From Verrucomicrobiota bacterium (GTDB taxonomy: Bacteria > Verrucomicrobiota > Kiritimatiellia > CAJWTS01), in NCBI GenBank assembly GCA_027623315.1, contig JAQBYD010000002.1, forward strand, positions 52,140-116,139: a stretch of DNA of 64,000 nt, read 5' to 3'. Below the pieces are notes generated by a model that worked only from the letters and a program-made list of their open reading frames with translations, ran no database searches and was not told where the DNA came from. The translations under genes and the position numbers were made by a program. This document shows positions 14,104 to 24,353 of this stretch, in pieces (positions within the stretch are counted from its first letter, which is position 1; every line of letters begins with the position of its first letter).

Positions 14104-14190
14104 ATTCGTGGGCACCAACTCTTCGTCCAGCGGTTCAACTTTCTTCCCACTACATTCGAGTCAGTCGTGCGATTCGTGGTTTCCCCTGCT
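14103..14190. repeat. Short intergenic repeat, family A copy 1 (contains the CGTGATTCGTGG core)
   Basis: aattcgtgggcaccaactcttcgtccagcggttcaactttcttcccactacattcgagtcagtcgtgcgattcgtggtttcccc. About 93% identical to 23014-23108. Spans the stop of ORF 13012..14103 and the last codons plus stop of metXW. Confidence 0.8.
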
Positions 14191-15942
14191 GATTCGCACG
14201 AAGATACGATCGGCGCCGAGATTTCTCAGGCCAATGCCCAGTAACAGGCGACCGATCGCGTTGTCGGCAGTGCACTCGATATCGAGAATATCGATTCCCT
14301 CCTGTCGGCATAGCTCGACGAAGTCCTTCAACGTGGCAAGGTGAATGTTCGGCGTATTGTGCCACTCGAACGGCAGGCTCTTCGATATCGGCATGCGACC
14401 CATCACTCCGAGGTAGAGGCGGTGTGACCATCGACCAAAGTTGGGGAACGTCACGATTCCCTCCTTGGCCACGCGCAGCATCTCGCGCAATACGTGACGA
14501 GGCCGATGCACCACCTGCAGCGTCTGGCTCAGGATCGCGTAGTCGTATGCCTGGTCTGCGACCATCGCCAACCCTTCATCCACGTCGCACTGGATCGCCT
14601 TGCGGCCACGCTCGACGACATTGATGATGTTCTTGAGATCGATGTCGACGCCGAGCGCGTCCACGCCATGCTCGCGCACGAGGTGGTGGATCAGGGCGCC
14701 ATCTCCACAACCGAGATCGATCACTCGCGAGCCGGGCGCGATGAACCCGGCGATAAACTCGTGGTTCTCCGCTTCCGAATCCGATGGCACGTGCGGCGAA
14801 GCCGCGGAGTCGTTGTCTTCCGAGTCGGCGCCGAGGAACGTGCTCACCACGTCCGCCAGGTGCTCAATGTCGACCAGGAACGCGTCGTGGCCGTATGGCG
14901 CCTGCAGGATGCAATAGGAGATCCGCCGGCCGCCTTTAAGAAGTGCGGTCGATAACTCGATGGATTGCTCGGGTGGAAAGAGCCAGTCCGAGCTCAATGC
15001 GACGACCAGGAATCGAGACTTCACCTGGTTCATCGCCGCCTCGACCGTCCCGTACTGCTCCTCCACATCGTAGGAATCCATCGCATTCGTGATGCGCAGA
15101 TAGGAGTTGGCGTCGAAACGGTCGACGAATTTGTTTCCCTGGTACTCCAGGTAGCTCTCCACCTGGAAGCGGCTGTCGTCTTCGCGGCGTTCGCGGCCGA
15201 ACTTGGAGGTCATGACCTCGGGTGAGAGATAGGTGATGTGGCCGATCATGCGCGCCTGCGCCAGGCCGGGCCCGGGCCGCTGAGCGGAGTCATAGTAGTC
15301 TCCGCCTTGCCAGTCCGGGTCGGACTCAATCGCATTGCGCCCCACGATATCAAAGGCCAGCGCCTGCGCAGACAAACGCATCGTCGATGCGATGCATACG
15401 CAGCGTTCAACCATCTCGCCGTATCGAATTCCCCACTCGAGGGCCTGCATTCCGCCCATGGAGCCCCCGATCACGGCGCGCAGGGATGTAATGCCGAGAT
15501 GCAGCAGAAGCAGGCGGTGCACGTCCACAATATCGCCGACGGTGATCTCCGGGAAGGTGGAGCCATAAGCCTTGCCGGTGTCGGGGTCCGTCGAGCCGGG
15601 GCCTGTCGTGCCCTTGCAGCCCCCGAGGATATTGGCGCACACCACGAAGTAGCGATTGGTGTCCAGACCGCGGCCCGGACCAATCATATCGTCCCACCAG
15701 CCCGGTGACTTGTCGTCCGCATGATGCCGCCCCGCGGCATGCGCATCCCCGGTCAAAGCGTGGCATACGAAAATGACGTTATCTTTGGCCTCCGACAGCT
15801 CGCCGTAGCTTTCGTACGCCACGCACAGATCTTTGAGTGCCCGGCCACACTCCAGCAGAAGACCCTCGGCCGGCAGGGCGATCTCAACGCTGTGGGCCTC
15901 TACGACGCCGACCCCCTGGTTGTCCGTGGATTGTGCAGTCAC
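14161..15942 (-). CDS. metXW: Homoserine O-acetyltransferase MetX fused in one frame to methionine-biosynthesis protein MetW
   Basis: N-terminal about 370 aa MetX alpha/beta hydrolase (…HALTGDAH…, GGSMGGMQALEW nucleophile elbow) continues through a D/S-rich linker into a MetW-like segment (VIDLGCGDGALIHHL…ILSQTLQVVHRPRHVLREMLRVAKEGIVTFPNFG…) without a stop. The last about 10 codons and stop are encoded by the 14103-14190 repeat. Confidence 0.8.
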   Translation of the reverse strand: MTAQSTDNQGVGVVEAHSVEIALPAEGLLLECGRALKDLCVAYESYGELSEAKDNVIFVCHALTGDAHAAGRHHADDKSPGWWDDMIGPGRGLDTNRYFVVCANILGGCKGTTGPGSTDPDTGKAYGSTFPEITVGDIVDVHRLLLLHLGITSLRAVIGGSMGGMQALEWGIRYGEMVERCVCIASTMRLSAQALAFDIVGRNAIESDPDWQGGDYYDSAQRPGPGLAQARMIGHITYLSPEVMTSKFGRERREDDSRFQVESYLEYQGNKFVDRFDANSYLRITNAMDSYDVEEQYGTVEAAMNQVKSRFLVVALSSDWLFPPEQSIELSTALLKGGRRISYCILQAPYGHDAFLVDIEHLADVVSTFLGADSEDNDSAASPHVPSDSEAENHEFIAGFIAPGSRVIDLGCGDGALIHHLVREHGVDALGVDIDLKNIINVVERGRKAIQCDVDEGLAMVADQAYDYAILSQTLQVVHRPRHVLREMLRVAKEGIVTFPNFGRWSHRLYLGVMGRMPISKSLPFEWHNTPNIHLATLKDFVELCRQEGIDILDIECTADNAIGRLLLGIGLRNLGADRIFVRISRGNHESHD

Positions 15943-16033
15943 GCTACGTCACTCCAAATTCAGTCAAAATTCGTTATCGGGGGAGTGTATCGCGACGCGA
16001 TACGGAATCCAGCATGGAGTTAGCCGCTGAATA

Positions 16034-16106
16034 CAGACAGAGATAGAACCGCGGTCTCTCCTCTCCGGATATTCGTGCAGATTCGCGTGATTCGTGGGCC
16101 CAAAAT
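16034..16106. repeat. Short intergenic repeat, family B, 'empty-site' copy
   Basis: The reverse complement reads ttttgggcccacgaatcacgcgaatctgcacgaatatccggagaggagagaccgcgg|ttctatctctgtctg. It matches the flanks of the 31 kb and 40 kb copies but has no internal insert at CCGCGG|TTC. Lies between the cysM stop and metXW start. Confidence 0.7.
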
Positions 16107-16122
16107 TTGGGGAAGATCCAGG

Positions 16123-23013: not shown

Positions 23014-23108
23014 TCGCGTAAATTCGCGTGATTCGTGGGCACCAACTCTTCGCCCAGCGGTTCAAGCTTCTTCCCACTACATTCGAGTCATTCGTGGTTT
23101 CCTCTTCT
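23014..23108. repeat. Short intergenic repeat, family A copy 2
   Basis: attcgcgtaaattcgcgtgattcgtgggcaccaactcttcgcccagcggttcaagcttcttcccactacattcgagtcattcgtggtttcctc. Lies in the 331-bp spacer between cysH and cysD. Confidence 0.8.
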
Positions 23109-23197
23109 CTAATGTCTAAGTTCTCTGCGCCTCCTCTGCGTCTCTGCGTGAGACCCAACGGACGACGAGCGCTCTGCGACTTTCGGGGAGCAATACT

Positions 23198-23917
23198 CTA
23201 TATTCTGAAGTGCAGTCCGCATTCTTTCTGCTCCGGGTTTTCCCACCACCAGCGGCCGGCGCGGAGTTCTTCGCCTTCTTTGATCGCACGTGTGCAGGGC
23301 GCGCATCCGATCGAGGGATAGCCCGCGTCATGCAGTCGATTGTACGGGAGCTTGTGCTTGCGCACGTGATCCCATACCTCCGCATCCGACCACGTGGCCA
23401 GCGGATTCAACTTGATCATATTGCCATGTGCATCGTCAATCTCAACGACGGCGGTTTCAGTGCGCGTCACGCCCTGCGCACGTCGCTGTCCAGTGATCCA
23501 TGCCCGCAGATCCTTCAAGGCGCGACCCAGCGGCTCGACCTTACGGATATGACAGCATTCGTGACGGTTCTCCACGCTCTCGCGAAAGGAATGCGTGCCC
23601 TTCTCGCGCACGAGCGTCTGCACGGCGTCATGCCGCGGAAAGAACCACTCGATCTCGACGTCAAGTTTGCGTGCGACCCGGTCGGCACATTCGTACGTCT
23701 CCTCGTTGAGGCGGCCCGTATCGAGCGCGAAGACGCGCACGTCATCGCGGATCTGCTTCATGAGGTGCAACGCGCAGAGATCCTCCAGGCTGAAGCTGCA
23801 GGCCAGCGCGACATCCGGGCTGTACTCGGACAGACCCCAGCGCAAGACGGCATCGGCATCGTCGCTACCTGTATAGGGCGACGCGCTGTCGGCTGCTTTC
23901 TGTACGGGCTGGCTCAT
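23198..23917 (-). CDS. cysH: Assimilatory adenylylsulfate (APS) reductase, thioredoxin-dependent, Fe-S type
   Basis: CysH fold with the Cys-Cys...Cys-x-x-Cys cluster ligands (RHECCHIRKV, GCAPCTR) and C-terminal ECGLH motif, both typical of APS rather than PAPS reductases. Confidence 0.85.
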   Translation of the reverse strand: MSQPVQKAADSASPYTGSDDADAVLRWGLSEYSPDVALACSFSLEDLCALHLMKQIRDDVRVFALDTGRLNEETYECADRVARKLDVEIEWFFPRHDAVQTLVREKGTHSFRESVENRHECCHIRKVEPLGRALKDLRAWITGQRRAQGVTRTETAVVEIDDAHGNMIKLNPLATWSDAEVWDHVRKHKLPYNRLHDAGYPSIGCAPCTRAIKEGEELRAGRWWWENPEQKECGLHFRI

Positions 23918-23924
23918 ATCATCC

Positions 23925-24353
23925 TTAAATCACGTAAGCGTCGGATTTCTTTCCAGAGCGTTCCTGAATGCGGCGGCACATTTCCTTAATCGTGAGTCCT
24001 TCGAGCGTATCGTGAACGTGCTCCTCGATTTCTTTCCACATCTCCGCAAAGGGGCAGTACTCACCGGCGGCATCACCGTTGTTGGGTAGGGCAGGCCGGC
24101 TCTCGGTGAGCCGCACGATCGCCCCGACGGTGATCTCGGCCGGGGACTGCTGCAAGAAGTAGCCTCCCTTGGGGCCGCGCCGACTTCCCACCACTCCGGC
24201 ATTCTTCAGCGTAATCAAGATCTGCTCCAGAAATTTCACTGGGATTTCCTGCCTCCTGGCGATATGGGCGGTCGAGACCACACCCGCATCCCCATGCTGC
24301 GCCAAGTCCAGCACGGTCTTCAGTGCATATTCCGTTTTCTGCGATACACGCAT
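23925..24353 (-). CDS. Rrf2-family transcriptional regulator (CymR/IscR-like)
   Basis: Start set at MRVSQKTEYALK, the canonical Rrf2 start. Winged-helix region plus a Cys-containing C-terminus. Sits immediately upstream of cysH on the same strand. Confidence 0.75.
   Translation of the reverse strand: MRVSQKTEYALKTVLDLAQHGDAGVVSTAHIARRQEIPVKFLEQILITLKNAGVVGSRRGPKGGYFLQQSPAEITVGAIVRLTESRPALPNNGDAAGEYCPFAEMWKEIEEHVHDTLEGLTIKEMCRRIQERSGKKSDAYVI

Follow-up and report, generated by a model that had tools for sequence, protein, structure and literature searches.

A Verrucomicrobiota sulfate-assimilation and methionine-branch gene cluster with a likely HcyS/HcyF/HcyD-type protein-thiocarboxylate module

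The 64,000-nucleotide (nt) stretch of Verrucomicrobiota DNA analyzed here (the window) carries, on the minus strand between positions 14161 and 24353, ten contiguous genes forming a sulfur-assimilation cluster of about 10 kb. The host is a metagenome-assembled "Verrucomicrobia bacterium", of which NCBI GCA_027593205.1 is one assembly. Open reading frames (ORFs) were read and their products assigned to families with Pfam and NCBIfam models, with bit scores compared to model cut-offs. The gene order is rrf2, cysH, cysD, cysN, metY, a sulfur-carrier gene, an E1-like gene, a JAMM protease gene, cysK and metX::metW, with position 24353 being the first base of the rrf2 ATG and 14161 the final base of the metX::metW stop codon. 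The gene calls and family models bear out an earlier reading made from the letters alone (the first-pass annotation) as to the ten minus-strand genes, their order and limits and the placement of the carrier, E1 and JAMM trio within a same-strand sulfate-activation and reduction unit containing cysH, cysD and cysN. The ten ORFs all appear in full length, keep their conserved catalytic motifs and were called alike in three independent assemblies (ENA ERZ23495042, JGI 3300004369 and Logan SRR2027830). The cysN-metY, metY-carrier and carrier-E1 gaps are 26, 16 and 7 nt long, and the E1 and JAMM genes overlap by 4 nt (ATGA, the JAMM ATG lying on the E1 stop codon). Upstream, the cluster is flanked by a membrane-protein gene in divergent orientation; downstream, a DUF4432 gene is convergent with it. 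Co-transcription of the ten genes is plausible.

The carrier gene (18401-18607; this and all cluster genes below are on the minus strand) encodes a ThiS-family sulfur-carrier pro-protein of 68 amino acids (aa) that ends in ...LLYFMGGG-A. It scored 64 bits with TIGR01683 (cut-off 37) and 46 bits with PF02597, and in a PDB sequence search it was aligned across 67 residues to the solved ThiS-family structure 2k5p/3cwi (E = 3e-19). Since the thiS hidden Markov model (HMM) was passed and the structure matched, the ORF is a beta-grasp protein, as had been proposed on first reading. When all six-frame segments were searched with the family HMM, no other carrier turned up in the window. Across the related loci described below and 120 database homologues, ..(F/L)LYFMGGG is invariant; 115 of these homologues, like nearly all the loci, have 1-23 extra residues beyond MGGG. 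These extensions are variable (e.g., A, R, K, RA, AIGI and RGAQ). At two related loci, L034 (8101-8420) and L035 (8943-9260), the carrier is in frame with the E1 (..YFMGGG-S-MNLTESQIERYSRH..), producing a polyprotein that resembles ubiquitin fusion precursors; because of this fusion, a cut after GGG is obligatory there. Variable tails and E1 fusions together argue for JAMM processing, and the co-encoded JAMM protease would be the obvious agent of carrier proteolysis.

The E1-like adenylyltransferase (269 aa; 17584-18393) belongs to the ThiF/MoeB family and scored 282 bits with PF00899 and 269 bits with NF004281. The ThiF domain (PF00899, residues 11-245) was its sole Pfam domain above the gathering cut-off, with no rhodanese domain present, and the protein aligned to MoeZ models over their N-terminal part only. 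Its top PDB matches were Uba4, ThiF and MoeB, and its motifs include GAGGLGS, two CxxC pairs and a conserved Cys in SCSQAGVLG. The JAMM/MPN+ metalloprotease (136 aa; 17177-17587; PF14464, 70 bits; PDB 2kks, E = 2e-23) is 100% identical to public protein P0001. E26 and H80-S-H82-x7-S90-x2-D93 are invariant in an alignment of 25 homologues; the catalytic Glu and the metal ligands are therefore kept, in agreement with the initial view of an intact protease. In public annotation, the carriers appear as "ThiS" and the proteases as "M67 metallopeptidase" or "proteasome lid subunit". With a carrier whose C-terminal residue is predicted to be removable and an intact JAMM site, the trio is best described as a putative HcyS-Ala/HcyF/HcyD-type protein-thiocarboxylate module, as was first suggested.

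The product of metY (416 aa; 18624-19874) is an O-acetylhomoserine sulfhydrylase (PF01053, 415 bits; TIGR01326, 466 bits). Its PDB matches include the MetY enzymes of Thermotoga maritima (7kb0, 382 bits), whose kinetics were characterized by the authors of PMC8191291, and of Wolinella succinogenes (3ri6, 314 bits). Similarity among MetY proteins was considered as a test of sulfide versus thiocarboxylate use and dropped as uninformative. The cysK product (317 aa; 16123-17076) is of the O-acetylserine sulfhydrylase A type: it scored 434 bits with TIGR01139 (cut-off 351), failed both cysM models (277 bits with TIGR01138, cut-off 394; 280 bits against a cut-off of 413) and is 65% identical to PDB 8zyc, an enterobacterial-type CysK listed as "Cysteine synthase A". 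Thus, of the original "cysK/M" label only the CysK part holds. The last gene encodes a fusion of homoserine O-acetyltransferase with a MetW domain (MetX::MetW, 593 aa; 14161-15942), in which NF001209 covers residues 22-375 (499 bits) and TIGR02081 residues 394-556 (212 bits). Both identities agree with the first-pass annotation; its listing of separate metX and metW genes does not, as one 593-aa ORF is found in all three assemblies.

For comparison, one genome per species was scanned with the JAMM alignment, and the 63 loci recovered were annotated by tblastn with the window proteins and a relative's sulfite reductase. In 50 loci, the JAMM protein was at least 40% identical and its gene adjoined that of an E1. 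These 50 loci belong mostly to the Planctomycetota-Verrucomicrobiota-Chlamydiota (PVC) group (Verrucomicrobiota, Kiritimatiellia, Lentisphaerota/Victivallales and Planctomycetota); a small number are of Acidobacteriota, Syntrophus and Desulfovibrio metagenome-assembled genomes (MAGs). The recurring order was rrf2-cysH-(cysD-cysN)-(DUF2061)-metY-carrier-E1-JAMM-sir::tusA-(cysK). Since the same order is seen in about 50 loci of several phyla, the arrangement is not a matter of chance. The metY gene stood immediately 5' of the carrier gene in 37 of 43 evaluable loci and, judged by this gene order, MetY is the conserved partner of the carrier. On the other side of the trio, a gene for a sulfite reductase fused to TusA (Sir::TusA) lay immediately 3' of JAMM in 41 of 47 evaluable loci; counting any position, 45 of 47 evaluable relatives had a Sir-type gene with a TusA domain, 44 of them as a true fusion. 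The fused protein is 786-789 aa long and consists of NIR_SIR, NIR_SIR_ferr and a C-terminal TusA domain (L011:10395-12755; L044:10393-12762). Its position next to JAMM suggests that the siroheme enzyme passes sulfide to the carrier system by protein-to-protein transfer.

The place of CysK was variable. Its gene lay within the same-strand cluster in 30 of 50 loci (ca. 60%); of 40 evaluable loci, 20 had it directly after sir::tusA, and in the others it was elsewhere or absent. Where rrf2 headed the cluster (21 related loci), cysK followed it directly in five. The nearest relative, L004 (JAMM 59% identical), has the same order as the window at 49-83% protein identity. The window and L004 were the only full clusters without Sir::TusA; L055, a Bacillota MAG with the carrier-E1-JAMM trio alone, also lacked it. 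It is because Sir::TusA is absent from the window and L004 that the trio stands directly between MetY and CysK. Most simply, the JAMM-cysK adjacency would be the common JAMM-sir::tusA-cysK order minus its middle gene, with no purpose-built sandwich. Fused metX::metW was also found in L004 (11456-13237), and besides the window and L004 no locus has this gene attached to its sulfur cluster. Four loci (L021, L025, L050 and L051) had the trio without an adjacent cluster-type MetY (at least 45% identical to that of the window). CysK was in the cluster in L021, L050 and L051; in L051 it came directly after JAMM, and a 44%-identical MetY paralogue headed the cluster. The 6.5-kb contig of L025 contained neither metY nor cysK. 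Mycobacterium tuberculosis-like loci (L056, L061, L064 and L065) encoded a divergent cysteine synthase 33-37% identical to the window CysK, and in L056, L061 and L064 the JAMM was ca. 30% identical to that of the window.

Two further genes recur around the related clusters. In 15 related loci, the cluster contains or adjoins a gene for a ThiI/tRNA_Me_trans-like PP-loop ATPase that also has an NFACT-R_2 RNA-binding domain (e.g., L011:13713-14831, L008:7881-8903, L052:4302-5351 and L049:12705-14234), and in L049 MnmA adjoins the cluster. In this PP-loop/NFACT-R_2 protein the carrier may have a second acceptor, one directed at RNA. Some relatives encode a further reductase, NirB-like and 914-977 aa long, in or beside their clusters (domains Pyr_redox_2, BFD, NIR_SIR and Rieske; e.g., L028:10530-13460, L033:11186-13927, L036:13397-16156 and L038:14528-17314).

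In the window, a Pfam scan of the larger presumed-gene ORFs revealed no NIR_SIR or TusA domain, some overlapping ORFs of at least 150 aa being outside the scan, and tblastn with a relative's Sir::TusA produced no match anywhere in the 64 kb. None was annotated within 10 kb past either window edge, which extends the span to ca. 84 kb in all around the cluster. The initial remark that the window contains no sulfite reductase is thus borne out by both kinds of search.

At the head of the cluster, rrf2 (23925-24353) encodes an Rrf2-family transcription regulator of 142 aa (PF02082, 112 bits; TIGR00738, 117 bits). The protein falls under the equivalog cut-offs of the IscR and CymR models (85 bits with the CymR model, cut-off 195). 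CysH (239 aa; 23198-23917) is a thioredoxin-dependent adenosine 5'-phosphosulfate (APS) reductase (TIGR02055, 255 bits, cut-off 235; NF002537, 277 bits) with the Fe-S cysteines HECC...CAPC and the C-terminus ECGLH. CysD (295 aa; 21979-22866) is the small subunit of sulfate adenylyltransferase (NF003587, 352 bits, cut-off 195). The GTPase subunit CysN (612 aa; 19901-21739; TIGR02034, 337 bits) is fused to a degenerate APS-kinase-like C-terminal domain. In this tail (19901-20404, the C-terminal ca. 167 residues), APS_kinase PF01583 covers profile positions 4-81 of 152 only, and the bifunctional CysNC model NF004035 gave 432 bits against a cut-off of 715. The P-loop is degenerate (GAVGVGKE, where GxxGxGK[ST] is expected), and most relatives have lost it; strong conservation is nevertheless seen in the motif RRLGELARI(L/F)TDSGQIFIT. 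A catalytically competent APS kinase domain, sought in CysN as a full-length match with a P-loop, was not found. Of the earlier "cysNC" call, the CysN part stands and the C part is degenerate. The tail is probably a non-catalytic pseudo-kinase that may have a role in regulation or in the handling of APS.

A promoter-like site (TGGACA, a 17-nt spacer, TACTAT; 24386-24414, minus strand) lies at the cluster head and is the only σ70-like match in 13500-25500; taken alone it does not exceed chance. Many related loci have a TTGAC-like box at the same relative place 5' of rrf2. Overall counts from the promoter and terminator scan did not exceed the shuffled expectation, and no terminator-like site was found in the coding-strand intergenic gaps, all three minus-strand sites being intragenic. 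A 24-bp imperfect palindrome of the type CTACTAA-N10-TTAGTAG (24359-24382), reading CTACTAA-N10-TACTAG on the minus strand, separates the -10 box from the rrf2 ATG. Palindromes CTACTA-N12-TAGTAG occur just 5' of rrf2 in L014, L015, L019, L032 and L036 and just 5' of cysH in L011, L023, L035 and L053 (at least nine related loci overall). We consider the palindrome a candidate operator of this Rrf2 subfamily. It was preferred to the CymR box, whose 9-mer ATMGGAATW occurs twice against 1.2 expected, which is not significant.

The long gaps of the operon (331, 239 and 180 nt) all hold repeats. The cysH-cysD gap (331 nt; 22867-23197) has interspersed palindromic repeats with no Rfam match, further copies of which lie at 14104-14169 (94% identity, 66 nt), 16069-16109, 31459-31482 and 31645-31685. 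The cysD-cysN gap (239 nt; 21740-21978) contains a long imperfect hairpin (-96 kcal/mol, z = -3.85, 0 of 200 shuffles folding as well), also a repeat element, one arm of which recurs at 26413-26444. The corresponding junctions of L004 measure ca. 40 nt (cysH-cysD) and ca. 20 nt (cysD-cysN). Since these junctions are 20-40 nt long in L004, the repeats are lineage-specific insertions. The possibility that the long gaps are remnants of deleted genes was rejected, as they show no protein similarity and their content is interspersed repeats. Neither a SAM riboswitch nor one of any other kind was found in the long gaps, and an Rfam gathering scan of the whole window returned RNase P RNA alone. The intergenic repeat family, with core ATTCGCGTGATTCGTGGGC and related arms, matches no Rfam family and occupies sites 14104-14169, 16069-16109, 21740-21978, 22922-23109, 26413-26444, 31459-31514, 31645-31685, 40222-40269 and 40406-40426.

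We think it likely that the cluster is a sulfate-assimilation and methionine-branch operon with an HcyS/HcyF/HcyD-type thiocarboxylate module. Gene content and order, spacing and overlap, catalytic motifs, the carrier extension and conserved synteny are direct observations; each chemical step below is modelled on family knowledge and on Wolinella biochemistry. CysD and CysN would produce APS, which CysH would reduce to sulfite, and a sulfite reductase encoded elsewhere in the genome (in the relatives, the Sir::TusA fusion) would supply sulfide. JAMM would cut Ala68 off the 68-aa carrier pro-protein and expose its Gly-Gly end; the E1 would adenylate this end, and sulfide would turn the adenylate into a thiocarboxylate. 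MetY would then couple the carrier thiocarboxylate with its co-substrate O-acetylhomoserine, provided by MetX::MetW from the same unit, and after an S-to-N acyl shift JAMM would free homocysteine and recycle the carrier. CysK would convert O-acetylserine to cysteine, most likely with free sulfide as the source. Rrf2 probably represses the whole unit via the palindrome at the promoter. The class of system is known (2006; Wolinella 2011); what is new is a phylum absent from the 2006 list and a lineage variant without Sir::TusA.

Several points weigh against this reading. The survey that defined this neighbourhood class as its row 4e (Iyer, Burroughs and Aravind 2006, PMC1779556) describes a SirA/TusA protein as "always" present and includes a sulfite reductase in the class, and the window has neither. 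The carrier passes the thiS equivalog, so on sequence alone a thiamine role would be compatible. The T. maritima MetY outscores that of Wolinella, and sequence thus gives the window MetY no mark of carrier dependence. Finally, the structured repeats in the three long gaps could attenuate transcription.

The trio's position between two sulfhydrylases had been taken in the first-pass annotation as a sign that the carrier may be shared. On this account, one carrier thiocarboxylate feeds both MetY and CysK, JAMM releases both amino acids and all assimilated sulfur is protein-bound, which we regard as unlikely. The window has a single carrier gene, CysK is in the same-strand cluster in 30 of the 50 loci, and L021, L050 and L051 pair the trio with CysK in the absence of an adjacent cluster-type MetY. 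The active site of CysK can take up peptide C-termini, for example the tail of CysE, and in Streptomyces Mec and MoeZ serve CysO for cysteine. The GapMind 2026 preprint describes these two Streptomyces proteins as serving MetO, the carrier of a homocysteine pathway, so that sharing of components has a precedent. However, the comparative data do not support a shared carrier: Sir::TusA (41/47) and MetY (37/43) are fixed neighbours while the presence and position of CysK vary, and the absence of Sir::TusA accounts for the JAMM-cysK adjacency. The window CysK is, moreover, of the housekeeping type by its models and its match to "Cysteine synthase A", and trios of the M. tuberculosis-like loci are paired with the divergent cysteine synthase. 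We know of no CysK-type enzyme shown to use a thiocarboxylate. A CymR-CysK-like pairing would explain the rrf2/cysK linkage, and no carrier chemistry would then be needed. The fuller version, in which the single carrier serves CysK and MetY, all reduced sulfur passes via the thiocarboxylate with one JAMM and loading proceeds without a Sir::TusA relay, appears to us slightly less probable again; if true, it would provide the first CysK-type enzyme accepting a thiocarboxylate and the first single carrier for both amino acids.

Another reading, which strikes us as quite improbable, makes the trio a sulfur-carrier or ubiquitin-like system of general use that serves tRNA thiolation (TtuB/TtuC/TtuD type), sulfur delivery to thiamine or molybdopterin, or protein conjugation and shares only its regulation with sulfur assimilation. 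The PP-loop/NFACT-R_2 gene in or beside 15 clusters, MnmA beside L049, passage of the NCBI thiS equivalog model and the likeness of the E1 to the SAMP-activating UbaA (339 bits) and of JAMM to desampylase (56 bits), both under the cut-offs, would fit such a system. Against it, the PP-loop gene, thiG and moaE are all absent from the window cluster and its flanks, and it is MetY and Sir::TusA that are strictly conserved beside the trio. In canonical thiamine ThiS and in MoaD the chain stops at GG, with no propeptide. According to Iyer et al. (PMC1779556), a JAB protein is never encoded in operons for thiamine or for the molybdenum cofactor. Least probable, in our estimation, is a decaying or partly inactive operon, left after Sir::TusA loss and repeat insertion in a host that uses environmental sulfide or organic sulfur. 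The loss of Sir::TusA from the window and L004 only among full clusters, the absence of a NIR_SIR gene from the ca. 84 kb around the cluster and the repeat insertions in three gaps are what such decay might leave, but the ten ORFs are intact, with conserved motifs, and identical in three assemblies. L004 keeps the order at 49-83% protein identity, which indicates purifying selection, and the sulfite reductase may lie elsewhere in the genome.

Outside the cluster, a MOSC-domain protein of 183-184 aa (10870-11424) is encoded on the same strand, with no link to the cluster seen in relatives; two genes intervene, the DUF4432 gene on the opposite strand and one of the CCA-adding/poly(A) polymerase family. 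Further off are a homologue of topoisomerase VI subunit B (Topo-VIb_trans and HATPase_c; 48295-50121, minus strand), here in a bacterial genome, and beside it a 378-aa ORF (46290-47426) with no Pfam match. Two eukaryote-like repeat proteins are encoded, one with ankyrin and MORN repeats at 50067-51509 (plus strand), the other represented at 63291-63980 (minus strand) by its FGE-sulfatase part; the gene for the latter (453 aa) crosses the window edge and also has ankyrin repeats. The housekeeping context includes a bacterial class A RNase P RNA (641-1037, plus strand, 221 bits), a membrane H+-pyrophosphatase (36826-39309, plus strand) and a deoxyhypusine-synthase-like protein (62280-63260, plus strand).

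Biochemical proof of the thiocarboxylate route to homocysteine comes from one organism only, and pathway databases have been slow to include it (PMC5764234). The module described here is a conserved sulfur-assimilation feature of Verrucomicrobiota, Kiritimatiellia, Lentisphaerota and Planctomycetota, usually beside Sir::TusA, and suggests protein-to-protein hand-on of nascent sulfide. This corrects the "ThiS" and "M67 metallopeptidase" annotations and bears on metabolic reconstruction of these mostly uncultured groups. The variant without Sir::TusA offers a natural test case for carrier loading from free sulfide.

The solved structures matched by the carrier (2k5p/3cwi) and by JAMM (2kks) come from Geobacter metallireducens and Desulfitobacterium hafniense, both of them species listed for class 4e. 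PVC phyla, to which the window host belongs, are absent from the 2006 list of that class (PMC1779556). The CysO/MoeZ/Mec+/CysM system of M. tuberculosis (rows 4c and 4d of Iyer et al.) shares with the window a clustered set of carrier thiocarboxylate, JAMM hydrolase and pyridoxal phosphate-dependent beta-replacement enzyme, and there JAMM releases the amino acid. The two differ in that MoeZ has a C-terminal rhodanese domain, whereas the window E1 is 269 aa long without one, and in that the mycobacterial enzyme is of the O-phosphoserine-specific CysM type, whereas that of the window is CysK-type. The window carrier has no detectable similarity to CysO: no CysO chain was among its PDB matches at E ≤ 1, and the four significant hits were all ThiS-family. 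CysO structures are included in the PDB. The thiocarboxylate route to homocysteine in Streptomyces (MetO/MetM/Mec/MoeZ; Hasebe et al. 2024, as relayed in the GapMind 2026 preprint) likewise has, in that account, a thiocarboxylate sulfur donor and a JAMM that matures the carrier; as described there, it differs in the use of O-phosphohomoserine, a threonine-synthase-like MetM, a rhodanese E1 and separate carriers for cysteine and homocysteine. The thioquinolobactin type corresponds to row 4a of the 2006 survey (PMC1779556). It differs from the window in serving siderophore biosynthesis and in having its E1 fused to a rhodanese domain. In this Pseudomonas system (QbsE/QbsD/QbsC), extra C-terminal residues of the carrier are cut off by JAMM before activation.

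In Bacillus subtilis, CymR and CysK form a regulatory (co-repressor) complex. The window resembles it in encoding, together with CysK, an Rrf2-type regulator without the IscR cysteine triad; it differs in that its Rrf2 is under the CymR cut-off and its candidate operator is another palindrome. The thiamine ThiS/ThiF/ThiG system is set apart by the absence of thiG from the cluster and its flanks, the extra C-terminal residue of the carrier and the co-encoded JAMM. In Wolinella, the HcyS-Ala/HcyF/HcyD/MetY set, whose carrier has a C-terminal Ala after GG, is said to have been characterized by Krishnamoorthy and Begley in JACS in 2011, and Tran and co-workers reportedly studied the W. succinogenes pathway in Acta Cryst D in the same year. 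Wolinella MetY has been reported to take sulfur from the carrier thiocarboxylate (PMC8191291; PMC6271081); in similarity, the window MetY is no closer to this enzyme (314 bits) than to that of Thermotoga (382 bits). The window lacks the sulfite reductase of the Wolinella cluster. Both share a ThiS-type carrier with Ala after GG, a JAMM protease, a rhodanese-less E1, an adjacent MetY and sulfate-activation and reduction genes in the same cluster, to which the window, in a PVC host, adds CysK and MetX::MetW.

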